DNA of 64,000 nt from an uncultured delta proteobacterium. GTDB taxonomy: Bacteria; Desulfobacterota; WTBG01; CAIYCZ01; CAIRTM01. This document shows, piece after piece, positions 23,663 to 43,597 of this stretch. The translations under genes and the position numbers were made by a program. The stretch spans positions 96,001-160,000 of the forward strand of contig CAWDSQ010000030.1 in assembly GCA_963804955.1 (NCBI GenBank), given 5' to 3'. Position 1 is the first letter of the stretch, and each line of letters begins with the position of its first letter. The notes beneath the pieces were generated by a model. The model was not told the DNA's origin and made no database searches. It saw only the letters and a program-made list of their open reading frames with translations.

Positions 23663-25637
23663 GTGCTGCTGCTTCTTCTGGCCCTGGGAATCATTGTTAT
23701 AAGCGGTTGCGCTGCTCTGACAGTTTGGAACAAGCCCGTGCTCAGCAGCTGCATCGGCGCCGGCGGCACGGTGCTTGGCTGCGCTGTGGGCATCATCCCC
23801 GCGCTGGAGGTGCTCCTGGGAGGCGCCACCCGGTCGCTGCGCTGTGCCTGGAGCATGCCGTACGGGTCTTTTTTTATACAGCTTGACAGCCTTGTCCGCT
23901 TTTTTCCTTCTGCCGGTGTTTCTGCTCTCAGCCCTTGCCGCCGTCTATGGCGGGCAGTATCTGATGAAATATAAAGATACAAACAAGCTCGGGCTCGCAT
24001 GGTTTTTTTATACCCTCCTTGTTGCCAGCATGGCACTGGTGTGCCTGGCGCGCAACGCGGTCCTGTTTCTCATAGCCTGGGAAATAATGGCGCTTGCGTC
24101 TTTTTTTCTTGTGGCCTTCGAAAATGAAAAGCCGCAGGTGCGCAGGTCTTCATGGATATATATGGTTGCCACCCATCTGGGCACGGCCTGCCTGCTGCCG
24201 ATGTTTCTCATCTTCGGCGCCTCTGCCGGATCCCTTGACTTTGACCGGTTTGCTCACAGCCTGCCGCAGCCTTTGGCAAGCATCTGTTTTATCCTTGCGC
24301 TTATCGGGTTCGGCACAAAGGCCGGCATCATCCCCTTTCATGTGTGGCTCCCCGAGGCCCATCCTGCAGCCCCAAGCCATGTATCTGCCCTCATGTCGGG
24401 CATAATGATTAAAACCGGCATTTACGGCATAGTCCGCATGCTGACCTTTTTTGATGTGCCGCCCTTGTGGTGGGGCTGGCTGGTGCTTGCCATCGGCATT
24501 ATTTCCGGCGTGCTCGGCGTGCTGTTTGCCCTGGCGCAGCATGATCTTAAAGGCCTTCTTGCCTACCACAGCGTTGAGAATATCGGCATTATCATGATGG
24601 GGCTGGGAGTCGGCCTTATCGGCTGGAGCGCAGCTGTTCCCTCTGTTGCCATACTGGGTATGGCAGGCGGGCTTTTTCATGTAGTCAATCATGCGCTGTT
24701 CAAGGGCCTGCTCTTTCTGGGGGCCGGCTCCGTGTATCAGGCCGCGCATACCAGGGAGATCGACCATCTTGGCGGCCTTATCAAAAAAATGCCCTGTACC
24801 GGCGCCTGCTTTCTCGTCGGAGCAGTCGCCATTTCGGGCTTGCCGCCCCTGAATGGTTTTTTAAGTGAATTTTTAATCTTTCTCGGCTCGCTGCGCGGCG
24901 CGATTTCCATGAGCGCAGATGTTGCCGTGCCGCTTATCGGTGCTGTTGCGGGGCTGGCCCTCATCGGCGGGCTTGCGGCGGCCTGTTTCACCAAGGCCTT
25001 CGGCATAGTTTTTCTCGGTGAGCCGCGCTCGAAGCCTGCTGCCGATGCCCGTGAGTCCGGGCCTCTGATGGTGGCGCCGATGGTGCTGCTTGCCGCAGCC
25101 TGCGTTGCTGTGGGATTCCTCGGCTTCTGCATCGTGCCGGCCATGTCCGGGGTCGTTTCAGGCATACTTGGCTTTGATGCCGGCCCCGAGCTGAAGATAG
25201 CGGGAGGCTGTCTTGGCTCTATTACGGCCGCATCGATAGCGCTGCTGCTGCTGGTGGCCTGCTTCGCCTGGCTCCGCCGCCTGCTGCTGTCGGGCAGGGA
25301 GGTCGGCAGCGCCGTTACCTGGGACTGCGGCTACACAGCGCCGACCCCGCGCATGCAGTATACGGCCTCGTCTTTTGCCCAGCCCGTCACCCATTTTTTC
25401 GGTTCTTTACTGGGCACAAAAAAGCACCTGCAGATCGGCGGGCAGTATTTCCCCGGCGCGGCGGAATTTGCAACGCACACGCAGGATATGGGCTATGAAA
25501 AACTCTACCGGCCTGTTTTTACGGCGGTGAAGCAGTTCTGCGAGCGCTTCCTTGTTCTGCAGCATGGCCGCATGCACCTGTATGTGCTGTCTATCGTGGC
25601 AACGCTCGTGGTGCTGCTTGTCTGGCAATTGGGGTAG
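23663..25637 (+). CDS. HyfB/NuoL-like proton-translocating subunit (frameshift near 23895)
   Basis: FLIAWEIM, GFGTKAGIIPFHVWLPEAHPAAPSHVSALMSG, LAYHSVENIG and WDCG motifs. Confidence 0.88.
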
Positions 25638-25640
25638 GGT

Positions 25641-26540
25641 ATGCATGCTGAAGCATTCATGAATATTATTCTGGGCATTGCGTGTGCGCCGCTTCTGGCG
25701 GGCATAATCAGCAGGGTAAAGGCCCTTGTCGCCGGCCGCACGGGCCAGCCCCTGCTGCAGCTGTACTTTGATATCTATAAAAATTTCCGCAAGGGCGCGG
25801 TCTACAGCACGACCACGTCATGGCTGTTTCGCGCGGGCCCGGTCGTGGGGCTGGCGGCTGCGCTGACAGCGCTGGCCATAGTGCCCGCAGTCGGCTGCGC
25901 CGCGCCCCTGGCATTCACCGGCGATTTGCTCCTGTTTGCGTATCTGCTGGGGATCATGCGGTTTTTCACTGTTCTGGCGGCCCTTGATACGGGCTCAAGC
26001 TTTGAGGGCATGGGTGCCAGCCGCGAAGTGTTTTTCTCGGCCCTTGCCGAGCCTGCGCTGCTGCTGGGCCTGGCCGCGGTTGCGCGCAAAACAGGCACCC
26101 TGGAGCTCTCCGGGATGCTTGCCGCAACCTCGGCCACCTCACCCGAGCTGGTGCTCGTGCTTGCTGCCTTGTGCATCATTTTTTTATGCGAAAACGCCCG
26201 CATCCCCTTTGATGACCCGAGCACGCATCTTGAGCTGACCATGATTCATGAGGTCATGGCTCTTGATCACAGCGGGCCGGATTTTGCTTTTATTGAATGC
26301 GGGGCAGCACTGAAGATGTGGGTGCTCGGGTCGGTTATCGTGGGCCTCGTGCTGTCCGGGGCGGGTGAACATTCCTGGTTCATACATGGCGCAGCGTTTC
26401 TGGCCGGCATGTTCGTGCTGGCGGTTTCAGTGGGCACTGTCGAATCGGTTATGGCGCGGCTGCGGCTGCTCAGAGTGCCGCAGCTGCTGATAGCGGCGGG
26501 TGTTCTGTCGGCCTTTGCTTTTATACTGGTTTTGAGGTAG
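25641..26540 (+). CDS. HyfC/HycD/NuoH-like membrane subunit
   Basis: GRTGQPLLQ, LDTGSSFEGMGASRE and ENARIPFDDPSTHLELTMIHE motifs. Confidence 0.9.
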   Translation: MHAEAFMNIILGIACAPLLAGIISRVKALVAGRTGQPLLQLYFDIYKNFRKGAVYSTTTSWLFRAGPVVGLAAALTALAIVPAVGCAAPLAFTGDLLLFAYLLGIMRFFTVLAALDTGSSFEGMGASREVFFSALAEPALLLGLAAVARKTGTLELSGMLAATSATSPELVLVLAALCIIFLCENARIPFDDPSTHLELTMIHEVMALDHSGPDFAFIECGAALKMWVLGSVIVGLVLSGAGEHSWFIHGAAFLAGMFVLAVSVGTVESVMARLRLLRVPQLLIAAGVLSAFAFILVLR

Positions 26541-26545
26541 CCCGG

Positions 26546-27190
26546 ATGGCATCCCTTGTCGAAACAGCCATGATGCTGCTCATACTCACGGATATGGCCC
26601 TGCTGGGCCTGAGCCGCCTGCGGCCCTGCATTGCCGTTTCGGCATTCCAGGGCATGCTGCTGGGCGCGTTCACCATCCTGGCCCACCTGCACGCCCTGGC
26701 GCCCCGCATTATCATCATCGGGCTGGCGAGCTTTGCCCTGAAGGGCTTTGTCTTCCCGTGGCTTCTTCGCCGCAGCATCCGGGAGGCCGATGTGCATGCC
26801 GAGCTTGAGCCCTATGTCGGCTTCAGCCTGTCGATACTGGCCGGCATAGGCATGCTGGGGGCGTCGGTCTGGCTGAGCGGCCAGCTGCCGCTTGCCGCGC
26901 CGGCGGGCGGGAATGTTGTCGTGCCGGCGGCCCTGACGACTTTTTTTACCGGCCTGTTCCTGATCGTGGCGCGCAAAAAAGCCATAACGCAATGCCTCGG
27001 CTATATCATTATGGAAAACGGCATCTATGTCATCGGCATCATGTCGGTGGTGCATGTTCCCGCCCTGGTGGAGCTTGGCATCCTGCTGGATGTATCCGTT
27101 GCGGTGCTGGTTATGGGCGTGGCGATTTTTCATATCAACCGCCAGTTTGATCATATTGATACGGATCAGCTGGACAGCCTGAAGGGATAA
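26546..27190 (+). CDS. HyfE-like membrane subunit
   Basis: Hydrophobic; MENGI and VELGILLD motifs; operon position. Confidence 0.85.
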   Translation: MASLVETAMMLLILTDMALLGLSRLRPCIAVSAFQGMLLGAFTILAHLHALAPRIIIIGLASFALKGFVFPWLLRRSIREADVHAELEPYVGFSLSILAGIGMLGASVWLSGQLPLAAPAGGNVVVPAALTTFFTGLFLIVARKKAITQCLGYIIMENGIYVIGIMSVVHVPALVELGILLDVSVAVLVMGVAIFHINRQFDHIDTDQLDSLKG

Positions 27191-27205
27191 AGGTTTTGCG
27201 CACTC

Positions 27206-28717
27206 ATGCTTCATGAAACAGCGCTCTGGCTTCCGCTGCTGATCCCGTTTGCCGCCGGGTTCATCTGCACGGTCCTGCCCACGGCGCGAAGCGCTTTTGC
27301 GGCCATGTGCTGCTGCGTGCTTGCCACGGCCATTGCGGGTTTTCCCGTACTGCTCCAGGTGTTTCAGCACGGGCCTGTCTATGCCGCGTCGAAGTGGCTT
27401 TTTCTGGACGGGCTTTCCGCCTATCACTACGGCGTGATGCTTGTAATTTACTGCCTGAGCTCTGCCTATGCCTGGGTGTACTTCGGCGAAGAGCTCGACA
27501 AGGGGCAGCTTATCCGCAAGCAGGCGCGGCTGTTTTCCGGCCTGTGGTGCTTTTCCCTGTCAGCCATGACCCTGGTTCTTTTTTCAAACAATCTGGGGAT
27601 CATGTGGGTGGGTGTTGAAGCAACGACGCTTATCACCGCTTTTCTCATCTGCATCCATGTGTCCCGTGAATCAATGGAGGCCATGTGGAAATATATCGTT
27701 ATCTCGTCGGTGGGGATAGCCTTTGCTTTCATGGGGACGCTGCTTGCCGCCGCCGCAGCCCGGGGCGCCGTCGCTCAGGATGCCCTTCTGTGGACCGTCC
27801 TGCGGGATAATGCAGCAGCCCTTGACCCAAGGCTTATGAAGGCCGCTTTTATTTTTCTGCTTGTCGGCTACGGCACCAAGGCGGGACTGGCGCCCATGCA
27901 CAGCTGGCTGCCCGATGCCCACAGCAAGGCGCCCGCGCCGGTCTCGGCGATGTTTTCCGGTTTTATGCTCAATGCGGCTCTGTACTGCATCATGCGCTAT
28001 ATACCCATTACGCAAACCGCCACGGGAGGTTCGGGCTGGCCCCTGAACCTGCTGGCCGGCCTTGGGCTTATCTCGATTATCATTGCCGCGATTTTTATTC
28101 TTTTTCAGAAAGATGTGAAGCGCCTGCTTGCCTATCACAGCGTGGAGCACCTGGGCATCATAGCCCTCGGGCTGGGGCTTGGCGGCCTCGGGACCTTTGC
28201 GGCGCTTTTTCACACCCTCAATCATTCACTGTGCAAAAGCCTGTCGTTTTTTGCCGCCGGCCGGCTCGGCCAGATGTGCGGCACGTATGATATGGAGAAG
28301 CTCTCCGGCAGTTTCAGGGTGTCGCCCCTCTGGGGCGCGGGCATGTTCTGCAGCATTCTTGCGCTGATCGGGCTTGCGCCGTTTGCCCTGTTCATGAGCG
28401 AACTGCAGCTTGTCAAGGCAGCCCTTGACAGCGGCTCCGTCACAGCCCTTGTTCTGTTTCTTGCGGGGTCATCTATTGTGTTTATCGGCGCCCTGCAGCA
28501 TGCCATCCCCCTTGCCTGGGGAACGCCGCAGGGCGCTGCCAAAGCCCTGCGGTTAAAGGGCCTTGAGGCGCTGCTGGTCGTGCTTCCGCTTGCGGCTCTT
28601 CTGGCGCTGGGGATATGGCTTCCCGGGCCGCTTATTGCCGTGCTGAACAGCGCGGCAGGCATTCTGCAGTCAACCCTCCCGGCTCAGGCAGCGGGCCTTT
28701 CAGGATATATGCCATGA
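27206..28717 (+). CDS. HyfF/NuoM-like proton-translocating subunit
   Basis: WVGVEATT, EAMWKY, GYGTKAGLAPMHSWLPDAHS and LAYHSVEH motifs. Confidence 0.9.
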   Translation: MLHETALWLPLLIPFAAGFICTVLPTARSAFAAMCCCVLATAIAGFPVLLQVFQHGPVYAASKWLFLDGLSAYHYGVMLVIYCLSSAYAWVYFGEELDKGQLIRKQARLFSGLWCFSLSAMTLVLFSNNLGIMWVGVEATTLITAFLICIHVSRESMEAMWKYIVISSVGIAFAFMGTLLAAAAARGAVAQDALLWTVLRDNAAALDPRLMKAAFIFLLVGYGTKAGLAPMHSWLPDAHSKAPAPVSAMFSGFMLNAALYCIMRYIPITQTATGGSGWPLNLLAGLGLISIIIAAIFILFQKDVKRLLAYHSVEHLGIIALGLGLGGLGTFAALFHTLNHSLCKSLSFFAAGRLGQMCGTYDMEKLSGSFRVSPLWGAGMFCSILALIGLAPFALFMSELQLVKAALDSGSVTALVLFLAGSSIVFIGALQHAIPLAWGTPQGAAKALRLKGLEALLVVLPLAALLALGIWLPGPLIAVLNSAAGILQSTLPAQAAGLSGYMP

Positions 28718-30222
28718 CGACGGCTCCTTTCCTGACGATGCAGAACAGCACGGCCATACCGCTCAGCACAGTGCCGCTGGCGCCGGCGCCTGTTTTCCGG
28801 GATGCTGTTCTTCGCGGCATTGCCGACGGCGCGAGGATAAGCGCCCTTTTCGGCGTGCCGGATCAGGCGGACACCCTGCTCCGGTTATTTGCCGTTCTGG
28901 CCGATGATGAAAATGCGCGGCTGGCTATTGCCTCAACGCTGGTCGAGGGAGCCTATCCGTCCCTTACCCCCGATTGCCCCCAGGCGCATCTGTTTGAGCG
29001 TGAGCTCTATGAGCAGTGGGGCATCGTGCCCGAAGGACACCCCTGGCTCAAGCCCGTCCGCTTTCAGGCACGCTATGCAGACGGCCACTCCGGCCTGAAG
29101 CCGGTTATTGGCATAGCAGATTTTTTTCATCTTGAAGGGGCTGAGGTTCATGAAGTAGCCGTGGGGCCCGTGCATGCCGGCATTATCGAGCCCGGCCATT
29201 TCCGCTTTCAGTGCCATGGCGAGGATGTGTACCATCTTGAAATATCCCTTGGCTATCAGCATCGCGGCATTGAGCCGGCGCTGATCCGGGGGCCGGGCAA
29301 GCGGCTGCCTCACTATATGGAAACCCTTGCCGGCGATACGACCATCGGCCATGCAACAGCCTATGCTCAGGCCATGGAAGCGCTTGCCGGCTGCATGGCC
29401 CCGCCGCGGGCCCAGGCCCTGCGCGGCATAGCCCTTGAGCTTGAGCGGGCAGCCAATCATACCGGCGATCTGGGCGCCCTGGCAGGCGATATCGGGTATC
29501 TGCCCACTGCTTCTTATTGCGGCCGCATACGCGGAGATTTTCTTAATCTGACGGCGCTGCTGTGCGGCAGCCGCTTCGGCAGAGGACTGGTGAGCCCCGG
29601 GGGCGTGCTGTATGATATTGACGCAGAGCGTGCGGCCCGGCTGAAAGACAGGCTGCTGCAGGCGCAGAGAGATGTTGCCGGCGCTGTCAATCTGCTGTGG
29701 GAAACGCCTTCGGTCATGGCGCGCTTTGAACAGACAGGCGTGCTGCCGCCCGATGCCGCAGCAGAACTTGGCCTGGTCGGCCCGGCTGCGCGCGCCTCTG
29801 GCGTAGAGCGCGACATTCGCTATGATTTCCCATCGGGGATATACCGCTTTGCCCAGGTTCCCGTATCAACCTGGGGCACGGGTGATGTTTTCGGCCGCGC
29901 CTATGTGCGCTGGCTTGAACTGCAGCGCTCGCTGGCATTCATACTGGGTCAGCTTGAAATGCTGCCTGCGGGTGAGATCATGGCAGCTCCCCAAAAGCCT
30001 GCCCCGAACAGCCTTGCCGTTTCTCTGGTCGAGGGCTGGCGCGGTGAAATCTGCCATGTCGCCATAACCGGCGGGCAGGGCGGCTTCAGCCGGTATAAAA
30101 TTGTCGATCCGTCTTTTCATAACTGGATGGGGCTTGCCATTGCCATGAGAAATCAGCAGATATCTGATTTCCCGCTGTGCAATAAAAGCTTTAATCTTTC
30201 CTACTGCGGCCATGATTTGTGA
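28714..30222 (+). CDS. HycE/HyfG-like (NuoC+D) large subunit lacking [NiFe] ligands (Ehr type)
   Basis: ATGA overlap with the previous gene. VGPVHAGIIEPGHFRF, LGYQHRG and EGWRGE are present, but both CxxC Ni-binding motifs are absent (ETLAGDT; NKSFNLSYCGHDL). Confidence 0.88.
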   Translation: MTTAPFLTMQNSTAIPLSTVPLAPAPVFRDAVLRGIADGARISALFGVPDQADTLLRLFAVLADDENARLAIASTLVEGAYPSLTPDCPQAHLFERELYEQWGIVPEGHPWLKPVRFQARYADGHSGLKPVIGIADFFHLEGAEVHEVAVGPVHAGIIEPGHFRFQCHGEDVYHLEISLGYQHRGIEPALIRGPGKRLPHYMETLAGDTTIGHATAYAQAMEALAGCMAPPRAQALRGIALELERAANHTGDLGALAGDIGYLPTASYCGRIRGDFLNLTALLCGSRFGRGLVSPGGVLYDIDAERAARLKDRLLQAQRDVAGAVNLLWETPSVMARFEQTGVLPPDAAAELGLVGPAARASGVERDIRYDFPSGIYRFAQVPVSTWGTGDVFGRAYVRWLELQRSLAFILGQLEMLPAGEIMAAPQKPAPNSLAVSLVEGWRGEICHVAITGGQGGFSRYKIVDPSFHNWMGLAIAMRNQQISDFPLCNKSFNLSYCGHDL

Positions 30223-30231
30223 GCTGATATT

Positions 30232-30978
30232 ATGCTGAAAGTACTGCGTGCCTCTTTGCAGCAGGGGCATCAAACGACTGCCTATCCCGAAATCGAGCCG
30301 GTTCTTCCGGACCGGTTCCGGGGCCTTCCCGTGCTCGACAGGTCTCGCTGCCCTGCGGACTGCAGATTGTGTAGAGATGCCTGCCCGACTGATGCGCTCT
30401 GCGAAGGCCTGAAAATTGATCTCGGCCGCTGCCTGTTTTGCGGCACCTGCAGCCGGGCCTGCCCGGCGGGGGCAATCAGCTTTTCGCAGGACTATCGCCT
30501 GAGCGTTCGAAAACGCGAAGACCTGGTTCTGGACAAAAATGCGTTGAAGCTGGCCGGGGCGCTGGATAAAAAAAGCAAAGCCCTGTTCGGCCGTTCCTTA
30601 AAGCTGCGGCAGGTAAGCGCGGGGGGATGTAATGCCTGCGAAGCGGATACGAATGTTTTGAATACCGTCGGCTGGGACCTGGGCAGGTTCGGCATACAGT
30701 TTGTTGCCTCGCCCCGTCATGCAGACGGTTTGCTTGTTACCGGGCCTGTTTCAGGCAATATGTTTTCAGCGCTTAAAAAAACCTATGATGCTGCCTCCTG
30801 GCCCAAGCTGGTGATCGCCGTCGGGGCCTGCGCCCTTTCCGGCGGCATGTATCGGGACCATCCGGAAGTCAAAAACGGCGCTGATCAGGTTCTGCCGGTT
30901 GATTTATATGTGCCCGGCTGCCCGCCACATCCCCTGACCATTCTTGACGGCCTTCTGCGGCTCCTGGGGAAAATTTAA
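30232..30978 (+). CDS. Ferredoxin-fused HycG/NuoB-like small subunit
   Basis: C..DC..C...CP and CLFCGTC...CP motifs; GGCNACE, ASPRHAD, GACA and GCPP. Confidence 0.9.
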   Translation: MLKVLRASLQQGHQTTAYPEIEPVLPDRFRGLPVLDRSRCPADCRLCRDACPTDALCEGLKIDLGRCLFCGTCSRACPAGAISFSQDYRLSVRKREDLVLDKNALKLAGALDKKSKALFGRSLKLRQVSAGGCNACEADTNVLNTVGWDLGRFGIQFVASPRHADGLLVTGPVSGNMFSALKKTYDAASWPKLVIAVGACALSGGMYRDHPEVKNGADQVLPVDLYVPGCPPHPLTILDGLLRLLGKI

Positions 30979-31019
30979 TTCAAACCCTGCTTGTGAGCCT
31001 TCACATTTGATTTTGTAGG

Positions 31020-31181
31020 CCCCCTCACCCCAACCCTCTCCCATCAGGAGGCTGTCATCTCGACCGAAGGGAGAGATCTTTGTAATAAGTAAAATCAAGG
31101 GCTTAAGATTTCTCACCGCCTGCGGCGGATTCGAAATGACATTAATAAATCAATTGCGTCACAGCCGCTGATGGGAGGGGA
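31020..31181. repeat. Nested REP-like element
   Basis: Outer CCCTCTCCCATCAG / CTGATGGGAGGG enclosing GCTGTCATCTCGACC...CGAAATGACA...CACAGCC; homologous to 47597-47781. Confidence 0.65.
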
Positions 31182-31473
31182 TTAAGTGGAGGGTGATCGC
31201 AACTGATAATTTCAAATGTGATGATCCACTAGTATTCGAGCCGGGTCCATACTCCGCGGCGGAAAGTAATCTCTGTCTACAAGCAGGGGGTCAAAATTTC
31301 GATCCCCTGCGAAAAACCAGGATTGCCACGGCGGACACCCTGCAATGATAGTCGCTGGAATTTTCGCGATTGCATCAGCTTTGAAGATATACAGATTATT
31401 TTACAGCCCCTCTGATTTTTTTTCGCCAATTCCTAACGATATGCCCTTCAAACATAAAAAACTAACACTTTTA

Positions 31474-31710
31474 TGTTTATAATGTGAACAGAGTCCAATA
31501 CTTCCAATATGTTGATTTTCCATGTTTTTGTCAAAACGCCTCTTGATTCGTTGTTTAGGTGTAAAAAATTTAAACAAATACGTCTTCCTATGATCGTGGA
31601 TTTGTTTATTTTATGAACATTTTATTGATAAAATTTAATATTTTTTTATATTTTTATTAAAATTTTGAGTAAAATTTTGACATAAATCCGGTCTTGGTAT
31701 AATTATTGTA
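31474..31710 (+). promoter_or_regulatory. Three TGT-N11-ACA enhancer-like boxes and a putative sigma-54 promoter
   Basis: Boxes at 31474-31490, 31560-31576 and 31603-31619. TTGGTATAATTATTGTA at 31694-31710 is GG-N10-GT, a non-canonical -12. Confidence 0.55.
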
Positions 31711-31801
31711 TATATATAGGTGAGAGCAGAGATGAATGAACTAATACGTTATAGTTTATTTATATTTAAAACCATTAAAGAGAGAGCAGAAGGAGGAAAC
31801 A

Positions 31802-33144
31802 ATGTCGGAAGTTGTTAAAAACAAAGGTTGGTCGGTGACATGCGGCGGGCTGGGCATTAATCTTGCCCTTGGAATACTCTATGCCTGGAGTATGTTTAAA
31901 GGCGCCATAGAGAAATCCATAAAAGCAGGCGGTGAAGGCGCGTTTACCTGGGATATGTCTCAGCTGAATGACCCCTATTCAGTATGCTGCCTTGTTTTTG
32001 CTTTTTCAATGATTCTTGCCGGAAAGTGTCAGGACAAATTCGGGCCAAGGATCACGGCTTTTCTGGGCGGGATTATGGTCGGCCTGGGGCTGCTGTGGAT
32101 ATCGCAGTCATCGAGCTATATCAGCTGGGTGCTTGGTTTTGGCGTTCTTGCCGGCACCGGCATCGGTTTCGGTTATTCTTCTGCAACGCCGCCGGCGCTC
32201 AAATGGTTCCCTTCGGCAAAAACAGGTCTGATCGCAGGGCTCGTTGTCGCAGGCTTTGGCCTGGCTCCTGTCTATATTGCACCCCTGTCTGAATATTTAA
32301 TAAATGGATTTGGTATCAGCAAGGCGATGCTCGTCTATGCTGTTTCTTTTATTGTTATTGTGTGCGGACTTTCAACCTTTCTGGTGAATCCTCCGGCAGG
32401 CTATGTTCCGGGCGGTGCTGCTGCACAGAAGAAGAAAGCCGCGGCTGCCAATGATGTGCCTCCTTCCAAAGTTATGAAAAGCCTTGATTTCTGGATGCTG
32501 TGGGCAATTTATTTCATCGGCGCAGGCGCCGGATTGATGGTTATCGGCAGCGTCGCGGGCATGGCCAAGAAGAGCATGGGCTCAGCGGCTTTTGTTGCTG
32601 TGGCGATTATGGCTATCGGCAATGCGGGCGGCCGCGTTCTGGCCGGCATGGCATCCGACAAGTTCGGCCGCAATGCCACGCTTGCCGGCGTTCTGATTTT
32701 TCAGGCGCTCTTAATGATTGCTGCAATCCCCCTGGTCAGCTCACAGGAAACCAGCGCTCTGCTGATCGTGCTGCTTGCCACGTTTATCGGCTTTAATTAT
32801 GGCGCAAACCTGTCCCTGTTCCCGTCCTTCGCCAAGGACCGCTGGGGCCTTAAATCCTTCGGCGTCAACTACGGCATATTGTTTACCGCCTGGGGCGTCG
32901 GCGGCTTTGTCATGAGCCGGGTTCAGCAGACCCTGTACGCAACAACGGGCAGCTATACCTCGTCGCTGCTTATCGCAGCCACCATGCTCACCGCAGGTAT
33001 GGTGCTTGCGCTTATGCTGAAAGCGCCCGAAGACCGCAGCAGCTCCTCAGGTCTGCGCCCGAAGGCGCTGTGTTTCAGCCCGGCCTTGGATACACCATGG
33101 CTGACGGCGGTGAAAAGGTTAAAAAAGAAGAAGAGAAAAAGTAA
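31802..33144 (+). CDS. OFA (oxalate/formate antiporter)-family MFS transporter; the probable true stop at 33144 needs a frameshift near 33030-33050
   Basis: LGILYAWS, QDKFGPR, KWFPSAKTGLIAG, GRVLAGMASDKFGR and NYGILFTAWG. The 600-aa ORF fusion with the next gene is an indel artefact; the shifted frame ends ...LGYTMADGGEKVKKEEEKK*. Confidence 0.85.
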
Positions 33145-33187
33145 GGTTCGGAGCAGAGGTCACGGTAGCGAAATGCGGAGCGGCGGC

Positions 33188-33959
33188 ATGAAGAAAAAAA
33201 TCTGTCATATGATTCCTGAAGAGGAAAAACAGTGCGTCTGGATGACCAGCGGGCTCATCTCCTACAAGCTCTGCACCCGTGATTATCGCTGCGAAGAGTG
33301 TATTTTCGATCAGGTTATACGCAACGAGGCTGCAGTTGACGCCGTCGCCGGCCACGGCGACGGGCTGTCTGCTGCAGCCTCATTATTCAACTGCCGATTC
33401 CCTGCAGGAACATGCCGCTCTTTTCTATCACAGCGGCCACTGCTGGGCCAAGGTCGAGGATGCCGACCAGGTGCGCATCGGCATAGACGGCATCCTTGCC
33501 CAGATGGTCTCACCGGTCAGGACGGTGGTTCTTCCCCAGATTGGCGACGCCGTGGTGCAGGGTCAAAGCTTTGCCCATATTATTCAGGAAAAGCATATCG
33601 TTGAGCTGGTCTCTCCCCTGACCGGAACGATCCTGTCCGTCAACCAGGGCCTGAAAGCAGCACCTCATACCCTTGCCGCCGAGCCCTGGGGCAGGGGATG
33701 GCTCGTGACGATCAGGCCCGACAATCTGGAGCATGATTTGAAGGCGCTCATGTTCGGCAGAAAAGCCATGGAGTGGTATGAGAAAAAAGAGCATGAGTTT
33801 GCCACGGCGCGGGTTGGCATGCTCAGCCGGCATGAGCCGGAGCTCGGGCCCACTCTGCAGGACGGGGGGGAATTGCTCGCGAGCCTTGCCGATATGCTCA
33901 GCCCCGAGCAGTACGAGCGGATTATGGATGTTCTTTTCCGGCCTGAAGATGCTGCGTGA
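33188..33959 (+). CDS. GcvH (glycine cleavage H)-like protein with N-terminal Cys-rich domain (frameshift near 33390)
   Basis: N-terminal CVWMTSGLISYKLCTRDYRCEECIFD; GcvH-like HCWAKVE...VRIGIDG...SPLTGTILSVN...PWGRGWL. Confidence 0.78.
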
Positions 33960-34479
33960 CCCGCAGCTGCTCCCTGCAGCGGCCGCACATATCCACTGAT
34001 TTCTGATCAATATCCTCCACATATGTCGAATTGACCATAACGCAGCCCGGCTGCCTGCAGTGCAGCAGGCCGAAGGTATGCCCGAGCTCGTGAATCGACT
34101 CCTTCACCAGCCGCTCGGTCAGCACAGTCTGGTTTTCGGGCAGGCCGTAAAATTTGCTGTTCAGCCGGTGCAGGGAGACGGCCGCCGCAATGCCGTCGAG
34201 CTGCGCTTCGCCGAACACAAAGGTGAGAATCGGTATGAACAGATCGACATCGGCAACAGCCAGAACCCGGCTGGCGCCGGGCGGCGGAGCCGCGATGATT
34301 TGCAGCAGTATTTTTGAGGAGTTGTACTGCCGGCGGTTGGGGTCGAAGATGCCTGCAAGGTCAAAGGGCAAATCGACGCAGCGCGTGCGGCAGCCGAAGG
34401 CTGTGTGAATGCCCGCCTCAAGCGGTTTCAGCCAGAAGCGGGAGCCTGTCTGGATGGGAGCTATATAAATACAGGACAT
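33922..34479 (-). CDS. Archaemetzincin (M54) Zn protease
   Basis: RRQYNS, DLFIPILTFVFGEA and HELGHTFGLLHC..PGCVM...DQK...C..C. Confidence 0.9.
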   Translation of the reverse strand: MSCIYIAPIQTGSRFWLKPLEAGIHTAFGCRTRCVDLPFDLAGIFDPNRRQYNSSKILLQIIAAPPPGASRVLAVADVDLFIPILTFVFGEAQLDGIAAAVSLHRLNSKFYGLPENQTVLTERLVKESIHELGHTFGLLHCRQPGCVMVNSTYVEDIDQKSVDMCGRCREQLRVTQHLQAGKEHP

Positions 34480-34501: not shown

Positions 34502-35848
34502 TCATTTTTTCAGGTTGTATTTTTGTATCTTGTTGTACAGGGTCAGGCGGCTGATTTTTAAAATGCCTGCCGCCTGAGCAATATTGCCGCCGGTGCGGTC
34601 GAGTATTTTTTGTATATGGGTTTTTTCAATGTCCTCCATCGAGTCCTCATCGGTTGACCGCGCAGGCCCCAGTAAAAAAGGGAATGACAGGTCGGCCGGC
34701 TGAATCAGCGTGCCTTTGGCGCCGACCATGGCGCGCTCGATAACATTGCGCAGCTCGCGCACATTGCCCGGCCACTCATAGTGCGAGAGCATCTCCAGGG
34801 TTTCCGGGGTCAAATCCGTAACATTTTTATTCATGGACTCTGCGTATTTTTTGACAAAATACCGCGCCAGCAGGGGGATGTCGGCTTTTCTTTCGCGCAG
34901 CGGCGGCAGCACGATGGCAAAAACATTGAGCCGGTAATAGAGGTCCTCGCGGAAGGTGCCTTCGCGCACGGCGTTTTCCAGGTCTTTGTTGGTTGCGCAA
35001 ATGATGCGAAAATCCACATTCAGCAGCTTGTCGCCCCCGAGGCGCATGAACTGCCTTGTTTCTATGACGCGCAGCAGGTCCATCTGCATCTTCATGCCGA
35101 TATTGCCTATCTCATCAAGAAAAACGGTCCCCTTGTCAGCCATTTCCAGCTTGCCCCGGCGGCGGTACAGCGCGCCGGTAAAGGAGCCTTTCTCGTGGCC
35201 GAACAGCTCGCTCTCCAGCAGCCCTTCGGTGTAGGCGCCGCAGTTGATGGTGATGATGGGGAAATAGCGGCGGTTGCTGTTGCTGTGGATCGCCCGGGCG
35301 ATGAGCTCCTTGCCCGTTCCGCTGTCGCCCCGGATCATGACGGTGGAGTCTGTTTTGGCGACCGTTGCGACTTTATCCATGACCTTTTTCAGGGCCGGGC
35401 TGGAGCCCACTATTTCATCGTGGTAGGAGATTTCCTCGATCTGCCGCCGCAGCTGCATGTTTTCCGACAAAAGCCTGCGCTGCTCAACGGCATTCCTGAT
35501 CAGATGCCCCATTTCATCGGGGTCGACGGGCTTGACGATATAGTCGAAAGCGCCCTCCTTGAGCGCCTGAATGCTCGTCTCGACGGAGGCGAAGGCCGTA
35601 ATCATGATGGTGATGATGTTTTTGTCGATCTGCTTGATTCTTCGCTGCAGCTCCACGCCGTCGATGCCCGGCATTTTAATGTCCAGCAGCACGATGTCCC
35701 AGGCGCTGTCCTGGAGCTTCTGCAGAGCCGCGTTGGCGTCTTCGGCGGTATCGACCCGGTAGCCGTCGAACTTAAACCACTTGCTCAGCGCGTCGCGCAC
35801 GGACGTTTCATCATCAACAACCAGTATGCCAATATCTGAGGGATTCAT
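34502..35848 (-). CDS. Sigma-54-dependent NtrC-family response regulator
   Basis: REC domain (VVDDE, LLDIKMP); GDSGTGKE, ESELFGHEKGSFTGA, FREDLYYRL, WPGNVREL; Fis-type HTH. Confidence 0.95.
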   Translation of the reverse strand: MNPSDIGILVVDDETSVRDALSKWFKFDGYRVDTAEDANAALQKLQDSAWDIVLLDIKMPGIDGVELQRRIKQIDKNIITIMITAFASVETSIQALKEGAFDYIVKPVDPDEMGHLIRNAVEQRRLLSENMQLRRQIEEISYHDEIVGSSPALKKVMDKVATVAKTDSTVMIRGDSGTGKELIARAIHSNSNRRYFPIITINCGAYTEGLLESELFGHEKGSFTGALYRRRGKLEMADKGTVFLDEIGNIGMKMQMDLLRVIETRQFMRLGGDKLLNVDFRIICATNKDLENAVREGTFREDLYYRLNVFAIVLPPLRERKADIPLLARYFVKKYAESMNKNVTDLTPETLEMLSHYEWPGNVRELRNVIERAMVGAKGTLIQPADLSFPFLLGPARSTDEDSMEDIEKTHIQKILDRTGGNIAQAAGILKISRLTLYNKIQKYNLKK

Positions 35849-35864
35849 GCGTTACAACTCCTGT

Positions 35865-37321
35865 CTAATGTTTTTCCATATACTGCTGGTTCTGGACCCG
35901 CGGCAGCTTGATCGTGAATTCAGTGCCCCTGCCCATGCTGGACTCGACGCTGATGGTTCCGCCGTGGCGCTGCACGATGCCGTAGACGGCAGAGAGGCCC
36001 AGCCCCAGGCTTTTGTTTGATTCCTTGGTGGAGAAAAAAGGATCGAATATATGGGGCAGAACATCCGCAGGGATGCCCGTGCCGAAATCGATGAGCTTGA
36101 TTTTTACGGCTGTTTTGTCCCGGTAATCGGTACGGATAATTATTTTGTTGTTCGGCGCGAGGCTTCGATGGCGTTGACGATCATGGACACAAGTATCTGC
36201 TGAATCGCTCCCGTATCGCACTGAATGAGATCGTCGCCCGTATCGAGCTCTGCAGCCAGCTCAAGGCTCTTCATTCTGGCGCTGTGGTCGATTACTTTTA
36301 TGCTCACGTCGATGATTTCATTGAGGTGCACCTCTTTGACCTCGCCCATGGTGCGCTTGGCGAACAGCAGCAGGTTTTTGACGATATCGCCGCACCGCTT
36401 GGCCTCATTGGCTATGAGCGTGAGGTTTTCCCGTGTTTCCGCAACCGTTTCGGGCTGCAGGGGCTCCTGCCCGAGGTATTTGGAGGAAAGCTTGGCATAG
36501 GAAAGAATGCCCGACAGGGGGTTGTTGATTTCATGGGCCACCATCGCCGACAGCCGTCCCGAGGGAGGCCATTTTTTCCGTCAGCGTCAGATTTTCCCTT
36601 GTTTTTTTGAGCTCTTCCTCGGCTGCGCGCTGCTGTTTGTGCGTTTTATAGCTGATGCTGATAATGCTGCTCAGCAGGAGCGATATGATCAGGAGAATGA
36701 CTACGGAGAATTTGATGATCTGGCTGGTTATCTCTGCAATTTCGGCTTTTATGTCTTCTATGTAGATGCCGGTGCCGATGATCCAGCCCCAGGGCATAGA
36801 ACCCTTTCACATAGGAAATTTTCGGCAGGATGAGATTCTGGTTATCATAGGATTGCCATTTGTACTGGATGAAGCCCGATCCCTGCGCCTTGACGACATT
36901 GACGAATTCGACGAAAACGCGTTTTCCGTCAGGGTCGGTGTAGTCTGAAAGATCTTTGCCGTTTAGGTCATTGCGGTAGGGATGAATGACCATGCGGGGG
37001 TGCATGTCATTGATCCAGAAATAGTCCTTGACTGCCTGGCCGTAATGGAGGTTTTTAATCTGGTCGATGGCCTGGCGCTGCGCTTCGGCGCGCGTGAGCA
37101 GGCCCTGGCGCTCGTCATTTTCAAGCTTCGCCAGAATATTCCATGCCGAGGTGGTGAGCTCCTGTATCATTTCCCGCTTGCGCTCCAGGCTGGTTTTTTC
37201 GATGGTCGGGATGATAAAGGCGAAAATAACGCGAAATAAACAGAATGAAGGCCAGTATCGTGGGAACGACAATGCGCCACAAAAACGACTTCCAGGGAAA
37301 TGAGATATGCGGAGATATCAT
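35865..37321 (-). CDS. Membrane sensor histidine kinase with single Cache (sCache_2-like) domain; several frameshifts
   Basis: Fragments give TM - YFWINDMHPRMVIHP...PWGWIIGTGIY - TM - EKMASLG...AHEINNPL - NAIEA - DFGTGI, FDPFFSTK, GLGLS. Confidence 0.85.
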
Positions 37322-38366: not shown

Positions 38367-41307
38367 TGGACACCTCCGATCTGGCCGGTGAAATCATAGC
38401 TCAGCTTTGCCTGGAAATTTTTTATCTGGGAGAAAATTTCCTTGAGCAGCTTTTGCTCGATAGAGGTCAGGTTTTTCGGGGTCACATAATTGTCGGGCTT
38501 TGCGTTTCCCGGCCGCTATTGCCGCAGCCTGAACCTGCAGCCGTATCTGCATGAGATAGCTGTATGCCTGCACCATTTCCTGGTAATTCAGCAGATGTCA
38601 GCACGCGCGCGCTCATGCAGCCCCAGCAGCCGCTCCAGCGTGTTGGTGGCGGGAACGCCGTGCTTGAGGGCGTAGATGCGGGCATAGTCGACAATGGGCA
38701 TCATGGCGCTTTTAATGTCAAAGGCCTTGCGGTGCTCGTCCACGGATTCGACGACAAATTTTCCGAACAGCCCGATCGGCGGGCTGAGCGGCAGAACATT
38801 GCGGGCCAGCAGCTGAAAAAATCTCGGGTTGTCGGCAACCATGGCAGCAAGAAAATCCCGCAGCTCTCCCGCGAGGCCGTCGTCTCCGAAGGCGCAGCGA
38901 AAGTCGAAAAATATTTTTGTTTTCAGGAGGTCTTCAGCCGAAGCCGCATGAATCCACTGGCTGAAATACCGCTTCCATACGGTAAGGGGCTGGCACCACT
39001 GGGGATTTTGCGCCATGTTGTTGCCCTCGCAGTAGTGGTACCCGGCCTGGTTCAGCCATCTGCAGACCATGGCGCCCAGTTTGAGGAAGTATGCCTGTAC
39101 AACCGATGACTCCAGGTCGGCGGCGGTGTCCTCAAAAATAATCGCATTGTCCTGGTCGGTCATGAGGGTCTGTTCCTGCCGGCCCTCGCTGCCGAATACC
39201 AGAAAAGCAAACCGCACCGGGGGCGGGCCCAGTTCCCGGATGGCAAATTCCAGGAGCTTTTGCAGAATCGTGTCGATCACGATGGTGGTCAGATGGTTTA
39301 TGCTTTGAGGCTTTGCGCCGCTCTTGATGAGGGTTGTTATGAGATAGGGGAGAACCTCATTATGCCTGATCACTTCGTCGGGTGATGTGTCATTGCGTAT
39401 CTCCCAGAGCAGCACCGCTGGCGAATACTTCTGAATGGCGGCTATATCCTTGCTGTTGATTAAGCCGATGATGGCGCCATGGGTATCGGTGACGAAAAGA
39501 TGGGCAATGCCCTTATTCTGCATAAGCCACCAGGACTCAAATACCGATGCATTGCCCGGCAGTGAAATAACGGGAGACGACATGATCTCGGCTACCGGGC
39601 GGTCCTCATGCTCGTGCAGGAGCATCACGGCCTTTCTCAGATCATGGTCGGTGATGACGCCGCAGTCCCTTCCCTCTGCATCGCGCACCAGCAGGACCTC
39701 GTTGTGCTGCTGCTCCATCATGCGCACCGCTTCCCCGATCGGCATGCCGGGATGGCATAGTGCCGGCTGGCGACAGGGCAGGCCGCCAAGGGGCTGATTA
39801 TAAAACAGCAGCACCGACTGCGTTTCGGAAAGGAGTTTTTCCCTTTCCTCCTCTCTCATATGCAGCTCAGTAATATCTTCCATGATGCCGTCACAGTATC
39901 GCGGCGACGCCGTCTTCGTCTTCGACCATGACGCCCCAGATGGAAGCGGTAAATACGGAGCCGTCTTTTTTCTTGAGCCTGACGATCTCCCTTTTCAGGT
40001 CTTCGGCAGATGCTTTCGGCTCAAGGGTTTTACGGTCGTCGGGGTTGCAGTACAGGCTTATGACCGGGGTGAGCGAGCAGCTCTTCCTTGCTTGCGTAGC
40101 CCAGCAGTTTCACCAGCGCTGGATTTGCTTCGATAAATTTCGGGTTCGGGCCGATGGTCCGTCGGAAAATACCCACGTTGAGATTGTTGGCAAGTGTTCT
40201 GAATTTTTCTTCGCTGCGGCCCAGGGCATCCTCTGCCTGCTTGCGTTTGGTAATATCGGTTACAACGGCCATGAAGCCGGTTTTGCCGCCGATTTCTATC
40301 GGGGATGTCGACAGAATAACATCTTTGGTTCCGCCTGATTTTGTTTTGAGCTGTGCTTCAAATGTTGCGGGAACCGATTTGCCGGCAAGCAGCTCATCCA
40401 GGAACCGGCTGCTCTGCTGGTCGTTTGATTCAGCCAGAACCGTGCGCACCGGCATGCCTGCGAAACTCGCTTTTATCGTATTCCAGCATGGCCGCTATTG
40501 TCTGATTGGCGTGCATGTAGGTTCCTTCAAGGGCCATGAGCATGCCTTCGCCTGCCGATTCGACAAGGGTGCGGTATTTTTCTTCGGAATCGCGCAGGGC
40601 CTGCTCCGCCAGCTGCTGCTGCTTGAGCGTGGCGTAGCTTTGCCTGATGATGCTCGCCAGCAGCAGCGAGATTATCAGCAGGATGAAAAAGGAAATTTCA
40701 AAAAGGTTGCGTGTTAGTTCGCTGATTTCAGCCTGGACGTCGTCGATGTAAATGCCGGTTCCGATGACCCAGCCCCAGGGCTGGAAACCTTTGACATAGG
40801 AGAGTTTCGGCAGAATGCGGTCCTCTTTATCCTTCCACTGCCACATGTACTGCATATAGCCGGCGCCCTGCCGCTTCACCAGGTCGACAAAATCCACAAA
40901 AACCCGCTTGCCTTCAGGGTCGGTGTAATCGGAAAGGTCCTTGCCATTGAGGTCGGTCCGGTACGGGTGGATAACCATGCGCGGGTGCATGTCGTTTATC
41001 CAGAAATAATCCTTCATCTCCTGGCCGTAGTGCAGGTTCTTAATCTGCTCGATGGCCTGGCGTTTGGGCCTGCGGCCGCGTGAGCAGGCCCTGCTGCTTC
41101 ATCATGCTCGAGCTTCGCGAGAATGTTCCAGGCCGAGTTGGTCAGCTCGCGGATCATTTCCCGCTTCCGGTCCATGCTGCTTTTTTCAATGGCGGGGATA
41201 ATAATGGAAAAGAAGGCGATGACAAACAGCGCTATGGTGACAGCCGTCGGGAAAACGAACCGTGCCGCAAATGACTTCCACTGGGTTGATATGTGCGGGG
41301 CAAACAT
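38363..41307 (-). CDS. Membrane-anchored Cache-PAS-PAS-CBS-DUF294 putative nucleotidyltransferase (~980 aa, several frameshifts)
   Basis: Collinear fragments 41014-41307, 40430-41017, 40030-40455, 38588-39883 and a C-terminal tail. Order: TM, sCache_2, TM, two PAS domains (SEEKYRTLVE, DITKRKQAE, SEEKFRTL), CBS pair, GSEGRQEQTLMTDQDN, FFDFR, FDIK...PIVDYAR, TNTLERL. Confidence 0.78.
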
Positions 41308-41692: not shown

Positions 41693-43597
41693 TCAGGCGG
41701 CGGCTTTTTTCTGCGAAAACAGCGATACGACAATAAGCGTTATATAGCCCAGGGGTATTGAAATGATGCCCGGGTTGTCAAGCGGTATCGGCGCTGAGGC
41801 TTTGGGCAGGCCGTACAGATCAACATAGGTGCTGGGCGACAGCAGAATGATCCCGAGCGCCGTGACCATGCCGACCACGATGGATGCCGCGATGCCCTTG
41901 GAGGTCGTCTTTTTCCAGAACAGCAGCATGGTGATGGCCGGCAGGTTTGCCGAGGCGGCAACCGCAAAGGCAAGGCCGACCAGAAATGAAACGTTCATGC
42001 CTTTGCATAAAATGCCCAGAATAATGGCGATGACGCCAACGACAACAGCGGCGATTTTGCCTGCCTTCACCTGCCCCTTGTCCGTCATCTCTATGCCAAG
42101 AAATCCAGTCATCAGATCATGGGCCACCGCGCCGGAGGCGGCAACGATGAGCCTGAAACCGTTCCCAGAACCGTTGCAAAAGCAATGGCGCAGATGCAGG
42201 AGAAGATGGTGATGCCGAAGTATTTCGCCAGCAGCGGCGCCGACATATTGCTGCTTTCCATGTCAAGAACACCCGTCATCATGGCGCCAAGGCCCATGAA
42301 CAGGGTCAGAACATAGAAAAAGCCGATTGAGCCGATGGCCACGATGGTTGACTTGCGGGCATCCTTGGGGCTCGAGACCGTGTAGTAGCGGATGAGAATA
42401 TGGGGCAGGGCCGAGGTGCCGAAGAACAGGGCGATCATGAGCGAAATGAAATTCAGGCGCGACATGAAGTCAGCTCCCTCGTCGACCTTGAACTTCAGGC
42501 CCGGCCGCATGATGTCTGGAGCCTGCCGTGGGGTTCTGCCGCCAGATGGTGACCTTGTCGCCGCCGTCCTTGACAACTGCTTTGGCAAAGCGGACCACTT
42601 CGGACCGCTCGATGGTGGCCAAAAATTCAAAGGGCCCGAGAGCGCCGGTTTTCTGGACCTCTTTGCCGTCGACGATGATTTTGCTGGCATGGCCGACCTG
42701 GTAGAACTTCCTGGCATCCTTGGGCTCGCCGTTATACAGGGTTTTGCCGTCGGCGGTTTTTGTCATGGAAAGGGCTTCCTTGAGTACCGGTCCGCCGTCT
42801 TTGGCGCTCACATGCCACCAGGTGGCAATGCCGTTCTGTGTGAGTTTTGCAAAGAGGGCTTTGCCGTCCTTGAAGGTGCCGGCGACGGTATATGCCGGGT
42901 CTGCAACCGCGGTAACGGCGTCATTTGCCACAGTGGCGTTTATGGTTTTAAACTTGTGATAGTTTGCATCCGGGGGGGTGTTAATGCCGTTGACGAAAAT
43001 ACTGATGGTGAGAATGGTTGAAAAAACAATCAGCAGGCCGCCCTTGATGAACTGCACATAGGTGGTTGATGTCATGCCCGCGGTTGCAACTATAAAGATA
43101 ACGATGGCGCCGACAAGGATAACCCCCATGTAGTGGGGAAGCCCCAGCAGCGGGGTTACCAGGTCGCCTGCGCCGACCATCTGGGGAATCAGGTAGCATA
43201 CGGAAACAACCAGCGTGCTGATGGCTGCCGTGAGCATGATTCCCCTGGACCCGAACTTGTAGTTGAGCGCATCGGTGAAGGTGTATTTGCCGAAGCGCTT
43301 AAGCGGTTCGGCCACAACAAACAGGGCAACGACCCAGCCGGCAAGGTAGCCGATTGAATACAGAAAGCCGTCATAGCCGTCAAAGGCGATCATGCCGCAG
43401 ATGCCGAGAAATGACGCGGCTGAAAGATAGTCGCCGGCAAAGGCTATGCCGTTAACGCCCCAGTGAATATTGCCGCCGGCGGCATAATAGCCCTTGGAGG
43501 ACTGTGTTTTTTTTGCAAAGTATGAAGAAAGCCCGAGCACGCCGAGTACAAAAGCTATAAATATGCCAATTGCAAATGGTGATGCTGCATAAATCAT
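41693..43597 (-). CDS. actP: Cation/acetate symporter ActP (SSS family), frameshifted
   Basis: NGIAFAGDYLSAASFLG, AEPLKRFGKYT, YLIPQMVGAG, GTSALPHILIRYYTV, AFATVLGTV and AFAVAASANLP; downstream of DUF485. Confidence 0.88.

Follow-up and report, generated by a model that had tools for sequence, protein, structure and literature searches.

In the 64,000-nucleotide stretch of DNA analyzed here (the window; positions 96,001 to 160,000 of contig CAWDSQ010000030.1 in assembly GCA_963804955.1, from an uncultured delta proteobacterium of the Desulfobacterota), two adjacent and nonhomologous proteins, a major facilitator superfamily (MFS) transporter and a protein related to the glycine-cleavage H-protein (GcvH-like), carry the same short linear motif, LGxT[ML]xDGGE. 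The motif is real and conserved, is common to both protein families, and is tightly linked to GcvH-like genes. Judging from the sequence comparisons, it may be a docking tag on membrane proteins that is read by the GcvH-like protein, an interpretation that we hold tentatively and rate at somewhat under an even chance.

A motif shared by a transporter tail and a GcvH-like protein

Positions 33079-33120 encode the transporter peptide PGLGYTMADGGEKV, in the frame terminated by the TAA codon 33142-33144, and the peptide PELGPTLQDGGELL of the GcvH-like protein is encoded at 33837-33878, within the GCV_H-domain open reading frame (ORF) that ends at 33959; both were verified where the initial annotation of this DNA had placed them. 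The two peptides are identical at 8 of 14 positions (P, L, G, T, D, G, G, and E). The same annotation had the motif lying near both C termini, and this stands for the transporter, where the tail tag LGYTMADGGE (33085..33114, plus strand) is found 18 residues before the stop and is followed by KVKKEEEKK, but not for the GcvH-like protein, where LGPTLQDGGE (33843..33872, plus strand) lies 37 residues from the end, in an internal loop between helices that belong to the C-terminal extension.

The resemblance had been thought unlikely to arise by chance, and several comparisons now bear this out. The pattern LG.T[ML].DGG occurs twice in a six-frame translation of the 4.26-Mb genome, both times at this locus, while the looser G.T[MLIV].DGG occurs three times. 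When a hidden Markov model (HMM) built from 43 transporter tails was searched against the 81,804 ORFs of the genome, its own tail was recovered first and the GcvH-like ORF was the best nonself match, at an E value (5.5) that is not significant alone; reciprocally, an HMM of the GcvH-like C-terminal extension recovered itself first and the MFS tail ORF as the best nonself match (E value of 0.01 over the same ORFs). Direct alignment of the two motif profiles with hhalign gave a probability of 96.1% and a P value of 2.8e-9 over 16 columns (QPxLGxTMADGGEKi versus xxxLGPTlQDGGExi).

Reading frames at the locus

As assembled, both genes are interrupted. The body of the transporter is read in frame 2 to ~33029 (ending in MLKAP), a linker (PKTAAAPQ) in frame 0 to ~33050, and the tail, APEGAVFQPGLGYTMADGGEKVKKEEEKK, in frame 1 up to the TAA codon; the tail is reached through two +1 frame changes, and the result matches an intact, 96%-identical homolog of 446 residues (P0001). 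For the GcvH-like gene, the N-terminal Cys module is in frame 2 and the GCV_H domain and extension are in frame 0 past an insertion at ~33385, with an intact, 94%-identical homolog (P0121) being 256 residues long. An indel had been proposed to hide the frame of the transporter tail, and the frame break is indeed real, but there are three 1-bp insertions (~33029, 33050, and 33385) rather than one. Contigs of relatives from four metagenome runs, belonging to four studies and compared over 32800-33600, lack one base at 33026-33030 (5/5 contigs), at 33050 (5/5), and at 33385 (3/3 covering runs); the best run matched 0.47 of the sampled words, and these contigs represent close relatives rather than the same strain. 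Since all of the contigs covering these positions are without the extra bases, the frames of the relatives are continuous and the transporter truly ends in the motif frame, in agreement with the intact homolog P0001.

Frequent assembly indel errors are the likely cause of the frame breaks, because other genes of the window are also split, although the contigs are from other strains and the insertions in the window may instead be real mutations. Split or shortened genes are located at 35865-37272, 40030-41017, 41693-43597, and 38588-39883. A histidine kinase is divided into three ORFs, and a Cache/PAS protein and a sodium:solute symporter into two each, while a CBS-DUF294 protein is 431 residues long compared to ~980 residues in two relatives (L037 and L039).

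The tail motif in the transporter family

The transporter gene (31802..33144, plus strand) encodes an SfMCT-type (OFA/SLC16-like) MFS monocarboxylate transporter, with a Pfam MFS_1 match of 1.9e-25 on 31802-33046. The window copy, being frame-broken, was scored on Pfam only, while its ortholog P0001 scores 409.9 bits on NF049980, "L-lactate MFS transporter" (cutoff of 320), and the family profile thus suggests that the protein is an L-lactate/monocarboxylate carrier.

Ninety of the 120 best transporter homologs (61-96% identity) carry G.T[MLIVF].DGG at 15-28 residues from the end, the remaining 30 comprising 4 near variants and 26 other tails, and a relaxed pattern finds the motif in 94 of the 120. 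Within these 94 tails, L-1, G0, M3, A4, G6, G7, and E8 are conserved at 100%, D5 and K9 at 99%, T2 at 97%, and P-3 at 96%. Homologous MFS tails therefore keep the motif, as does the internal copy in 57 of 63 GcvH-like homologs, and the proposal of a conserved linear motif common to two nonhomologous adjacent proteins is upheld.

The tail motif tracks the gene cluster and not the transporter family. A search of 401 genomes of the phylum with P0001 gave 78 matches in 74 genomes, and the 77 loci outside the window (73 genomes) were taken from 3 kb upstream to 7 kb downstream, some of them cut by contig ends. The tail is present in five of these loci, and exactly those five have genes for a GcvH-like protein, an archaemetzincin (peptidase M54), and a sigma-54 regulator alongside; a Cache-type kinase homolog is also present in all five (L043-L047). 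In the stretch taken, the other 72 loci lack the tail as well as any GcvH-like or M54 gene.

Other carriers and their genomic neighborhoods

Searching an alignment of the GcvH-like protein against the same 401 genomes recovered clusters with a different upstream membrane protein. These NrfD-type clusters encode an HmcC/NrfD-like subunit (420 bits on the HmcC model, cutoff of 550) together with an HmcB-like iron-sulfur partner, and the HmcC/NrfD-like proteins of four loci (L006, L010, L013, and L014) end in LG.TMADGG or LGFTMANGG. Downstream of the subunit, the tagged clusters encode first a membrane-anchored GcvH-like protein (NLGxVxQDGG) and next a Cys4-GcvH-like protein (LGxTMQDGG), and kinase, regulator, and M54 genes adjoin them.

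Further features of the NrfD-type clusters concern the second motif copy and the kinases. Where the NrfD-like subunit is untagged (L008, L011, L012, and L015), the motif of the Cys4-GcvH-like protein is mostly without its second glycine (QDGE, QDGP, or QDGR), and tagged clusters L006, L013, and L014 keep QDGG in this protein, with L009 as an exception; the two motif copies may co-vary in these clusters, in what is a small sample. The cluster kinases (L024; L031 and L042) have CxxCH-like motifs in their N-terminal part, while those of the transporter-type clusters (the window and L043-L047) have an sCache_2 sensor, and the type of sensor accordingly varies with the tagged membrane protein.

A DNA pattern for GxTMADGG gave 24 matches in 21 of the 401 phylum genomes, compared to 2 for the reversed control pattern. 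These 24 comprise 6 transporter tails, 2 NrfD-like tails, 4 GcvH-like proteins, and 12 small proteins made up of a single hydrophobic helix and a tail with LG[LF]TMADGG[DE] and a charged stretch. For 22 of the 24 matches, a GcvH-like ORF contains the match or lies no more than 1.5 kb away, and the other two are a few kilobases from such clusters on the same contigs. The pattern L-G-x-T-M-A-D-G-G-[DE] was also searched over one genome each of ~185,000 species and was found in at least 121 stretches; groups among the matches listed include Acidobacteriota, Desulfobacterota, Ignavibacteriae, Bacteroidota, Kryptoniota, Calditrichaceae, and others, and a cultured carrier, Paludibaculum fermentans (Acidobacteriota), is found among them. 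Neighborhoods were counted for 80 of the at least 121 stretches, namely those with 3-kb flanks, in which small ORFs make up 61 of the carriers, the others being 12 longer open frames whose tail context is the same, 3 transporters, and 4 GcvH-like proteins. A GcvH-like ORF other than the carrier itself is present at 72 of the 80 loci and an M54 gene at 10. The enrichment near GcvH-like genes, for which a pattern search had been suggested as a check, is thus seen both in the phylum and in the all-species collection.

The arrangement is also consistent between carriers. At all 120 listed loci where an ORF contains the motif, 14-54 residues separate it from the ORF end, and for 67 of 76 non-GcvH carriers, GcvH-like homology starts 20-439 nucleotides (nt) downstream on the same strand; the same order is seen for 15 of 20 in the phylum set, with a median of 307 nt over both sets. 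Transporter tails and small proteins agree at P-3 and in hydrophobic residues at -6 and +10, positions that lie outside the search pattern. The tagged HmcC/NrfD-like proteins likewise show the P at -3 and the hydrophobic residue at +10.

The small carriers, which are the commonest kind, form a family of ~80-130 residues whose only conserved features are the single membrane helix and the LGxTMADGG[DE] tail (L122, L124-L127, and L141 in Desulfobacterota; L144-L223, mostly in Acidobacteriota). Those of Desulfobacterota are flanked on both sides by GcvH-like genes. The unit in Acidobacteriota consists of the small tag protein followed directly by a GcvH-like protein with two CPFLxE..C modules, whose extension keeps a degenerate x-[MLA]-x-D-G-G.

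The GcvH-like protein

The gene downstream of the transporter (33188..33959, plus strand) encodes a Cys4-GcvH-like protein with a Pfam GCV_H match of 3.9e-20 (72.4 bits, cutoff of 22.2). The protein has three parts, an N-terminal C-x12-C-x5-C-x2-C module, a central GCV_H domain, and a C-terminal extension of ~60 residues. In an alignment of 43 sequences, C16, C29, C35, and C38 are invariant, as are G220, D225, and G226 of the motif, while T222 and G227 are conserved at 90% or more, placing the motif among the best-kept positions of the protein; D-G-G is kept in both GcvH-like classes, Cys4 and membrane-anchored. At the site that aligns with the lipoyl-lysine, lysine is found in the window protein and in 32 of the 43 relatives, with R in 8 of them and H, E, or D in 3. 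Pfam scans of 22 ORFs over 19402-46356 and of the locus ORFs found no glycine-cleavage T- or P-protein domains.

In two AlphaFold2 monomer models, the core is predicted with per-residue confidence (pLDDT) of 85-96 and the motif block with 55-57 (model 1), or 83-94 and 61-69, respectively (model 2), and this lower confidence fits an exposed loop. A Foldseek search of the model against the PDB matched only H-proteins (E value of 4.6e-12, TM score of 0.75-0.90 on the target, and root mean square deviation of 1.3-2.1 Å to crystal structures), and the extensions were without a match.

Two additional observations concern related GcvH-like proteins. A precomputed assignment to Pfam PF28260 exists for numerous membrane-anchored GcvH-like proteins (P0180, P0192, and many in the series P0184-P0303), and this family may already cover part of them. 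At L033 (7176-9815; G124:C112), an 880-residue ORF lies between the kinase and Cys4-GcvH-like genes, with a GcvH-like region that matches profile positions 52-254, and by appearance it is a fused form.

A putative docking tag and competing explanations

If the motif is a docking tag, it would be a portable, cytoplasmic short linear element with the consensus hydrophobic-x-x-P-x-L-G-x-T-M-A-D-G-G-[ED], located 12-54 residues from the C terminus of membrane proteins, by which the membrane protein docks to the GcvH-fold product of the gene immediately downstream. The internal copy, LGPT[LM]QDGGE, in the flexible loop of the GcvH-like protein could then be an intramolecular mimic or a handle for chaining GcvH-like proteins, and docking would couple the transporter, through its abundance or state, to a signaling module composed of the Cache kinase, the sigma-54 activator, and the archaemetzincin. 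Cytoplasmic exposure, physical docking, and a regulatory role are inferred here. The motif is positioned after the last membrane helix in all carriers, with Arg/Lys-rich flanks, and the termini of MFS proteins face the cytoplasm; given these three points, the tag should face the cytoplasm. Docking to the GcvH-like protein is ranked first because its gene is the tightest and most consistently ordered neighbor of the tag, making this protein the most likely reader and the archaemetzincin the second.

Several observations weigh against docking to the GcvH-like protein. The AlphaFold2 monomers place the internal motif on the GcvH domain without confidence and thus give no structural hint of a motif-binding site there. 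The five tail-bearing MFS loci all come from members of the taxonomic family and order to which the window belongs, and they may therefore count as a single evolutionary event. In six clusters (L008, L009, L011, L012, L015, and L016), the NrfD-like subunit has no tag, from which it follows that the tag is dispensable for some clusters. Furthermore, M54 is found in 20 of the 21 motif genomes compared to 129 of the 380 others and in five of five Acidobacteriota genomes checked, three of which have M54 ~7-9 kb from the tag if the contig numbers correspond. These M54 counts fit an alternative in which the motif is instead a recognition or cleavage site for the archaemetzincin, with the protease trimming or binding the GcvH-like loop and the membrane tails, and the tails could even compete with the GcvH-like protein for the protease. 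The presence of the M54 gene in the window cluster and at all five tail-bearing MFS loci also fits this explanation, as does the nature of the motif loop, which is exposed, nearly invariant, and rich in small residues. However, within 3 kb of the tag, M54 is found at only 10 of 80 loci compared to 72 of 80 for the GcvH-like gene, and in genome G085, the tag gene pair is ~47-52 kb from the only M54 match listed for that genome. Overall, a protease site appears rather unlikely, though it is the alternative that deserves the most attention. In favor of such a site, PMC3427221 describes the natural substrates of archaemetzincin as unknown, the enzyme as inactive on standard substrates, the S1' pocket as small and closed, and the groove as acidic and hydrophobic. 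A combined scheme may also be envisioned, in which the tag and the GcvH-like loop are both natural archaemetzincin ligands, the tail mimics the loop and competes for the protease or for the GcvH domain, and the sigma-54 two-component system thereby gauges its own membrane product in a form of product-sensing feedback; we consider this scheme unlikely.

Both motif copies might alternatively be handles for a third partner, such as the sensor kinase or the sigma-54 activator, or might pair with one another. The clusters come with a kinase and a sigma-54 regulator, the motif appears equally exposed in all carriers, and the kinase sensor varies with the membrane protein (Cache with MFS and CxxCH-bearing with NrfD-type), but a regulator homolog is found within 3 kb at only a few of the 80 collection loci, and this possibility strikes us as distinctly doubtful. 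It is very improbable that the motif is covalently modified, perhaps on its Thr or its Asp, by the nearby CBS-DUF294 nucleotidyltransferase or another enzyme. Although MFS tails and Cys4-GcvH-like proteins keep the T at 97-98% and a DUF294 protein is near three of the four widely sampled MFS-type loci, V replaces T in 98% of 120 membrane-anchored GcvH-like proteins, and among the matches listed, DUF294 is present at 0 of 24 and 0 of 121 other loci with the tag. On these counts, the DUF294 enzyme, which the initial annotation had named as a possible reader of the tag, was rejected in that role. Finally, coincidence or structural convergence with no common function could be considered given how short the motif is and how little the match of the MFS-tail HMM to the GcvH-like ORF signifies by itself, but it is scarcely credible in the face of the reciprocal top nonself matches, the hhalign P value, and the three to four independent carrier classes that all adjoin GcvH-like genes, with 24 pattern matches compared to 2 for the control.

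Organization of the locus

The transporter and GcvH-like genes (31802-33959) are codirectional, and the latter starts 43 nt past the MFS stop with a GGAG ribosome-binding match before its start. Convergent to this pair are the genes for the archaemetzincin (33922..34479, minus strand), which overlaps the end of the GcvH-like gene, an NtrC-type sigma-54-dependent response regulator (34502..35848, minus strand; Response_reg, Sigma54_activat, AAA_lid_14, and HTH_8), and the Cache-type sensor histidine kinase (35865..37272, minus strand; sCache_2, HisKA, and HATPase_c), the last of these being the gene divided into three ORFs in the assembly. The archaemetzincin matches Pfam Peptidase_M54 at 2.5e-22 and scores 156.8 bits on NF033823 (cutoff of 145), and H130, E131, H134, G137, H140, C141, C146, C165, and C168 (HELGHxxGxxHC..C...C..C) are invariant in 11 cluster M54 homologs. 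In the AT-rich spacer 5' of the MFS gene, there is a sigma-70-like promoter match (31677..31706, plus strand; TTGACA, 18 nt, AATTAT) that is a consensus match only. No sigma-54 promoter (TGGCAC-N5-TTGCW with up to two mismatches) was found in 30978-31802, and a loose sigma-54 pattern applied to locus L037 gave matches at chance level only.

A membrane-bound [NiFe]-hydrogenase-like operon (23775-30978) ends ~800 bp upstream of the transporter, across the AT-rich spacer, and encodes two Proton_antipo_M subunits, a fused 30-kDa/49-kDa large subunit, and a 20-kDa small subunit with a ferredoxin domain. Farther upstream, at 19402-21466, is an adjoining pair of ORFs with MopE-type putative metal-binding repeats and thrombospondin type 3 repeats.

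Novelty and implications

The tag appears to be undescribed in the literature searched. The strings TMADGG, MADGGE, LQDGGE, and TMADGGE were not found in full-text literature, a search that subscription journals lay outside, and no NCBIfam or Pfam model searched covers the tag. Among the literature matches listed for "GcvH-like," the proteins concerned are Staphylococcus aureus GcvH-L and the sulfur-oxidation LbpA, no connection between archaemetzincin and a GcvH-like protein was found among the literature matches listed, and the portion of the D. vulgaris sigma-54 regulome paper that was available mentions neither a peptidase nor GcvH.

If the docking interpretation is correct, the motif would constitute a new and widespread peptide tag on bacterial membrane proteins across several phyla. 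It would also provide the first testable molecular role for the putatively lipoate-independent GcvH-fold proteins and for archaemetzincins, both of which are orphan groups, and a route by which, in anaerobes, a sigma-54 signaling unit is coupled to a lactate-type transporter or a quinone module. A tag this short and invariant would make for simple assays of peptide binding and cleavage, and P. fermentans is a cultured tag carrier.

Comparison with known systems

The components of the locus and of related clusters can be compared with known families. The body of the transporter is like that of SfMCT from Syntrophobacter fumaroxidans, an SLC16 homolog (PDB 6G9X), with residues 14-411 of P0001 aligning to the 420-residue chain; the solved chain ends where the alignment ends and is without an LGxTMADGG tail, the NF049980 profile (378 positions) does not extend over the tail, and a C-terminal tag on SfMCT-type transporters was not found described in the literature searched. 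The central domain of the GcvH-like protein shares its fold with the glycine-cleavage H-protein and the paralogs GcvH-L and LbpA (PF01597), but P0121 falls below the cutoffs for GcvH equivalogs (67.1 versus 115.85 bits for TIGR00527 and 73.1 versus 117 for NF002270), and the window protein adds the N-terminal Cys module and the motif-bearing C-terminal extension. The M54 gene is a full member of the archaemetzincins (AmzA, M54, NF033823), with the HEXXHXXGXXHC and Cys4 residues kept, and it differs from known archaemetzincins in being bacterial and embedded in a sigma-54/GcvH-like cluster, with the tag as a candidate ligand. As for Hmc/HybAB-type two-subunit quinone modules (HmcB/HmcC), none is encoded in the window; in the related clusters, the tag carrier is the HmcC-like subunit of the NrfD family beside an HmcB-like iron-sulfur subunit, and the tagged subunits adjoin GcvH-like proteins rather than cytochrome or catalytic partners.

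The tag itself is distinct from known sorting and degradation signals. LPXTG, PEP-CTERM, and GlyGly-CTERM proteins have a signature followed by a C-terminal hydrophobic helix and a basic end, and ssrA-like tags are terminal hydrophobic degrons; both kinds were ruled out, as there is no helix after the tag described here and the end is charged and rich in Lys and Glu. A possible working analogy may be found in inducer exclusion by EIIA-Glc, sequestration of Mlc by PtsG, and the co-sensing of DctA or DcuB with DcuS. In these systems, a cytoplasmic part of a transporter binds a soluble regulatory protein, be it a beta-sandwich or another regulator, and reports the level or activity of the transporter. 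They have no sequence or family relation to the tag system, in which the putative handle is a C-terminal peptide common to unrelated membrane proteins and the proposed partner is a GcvH-fold protein.

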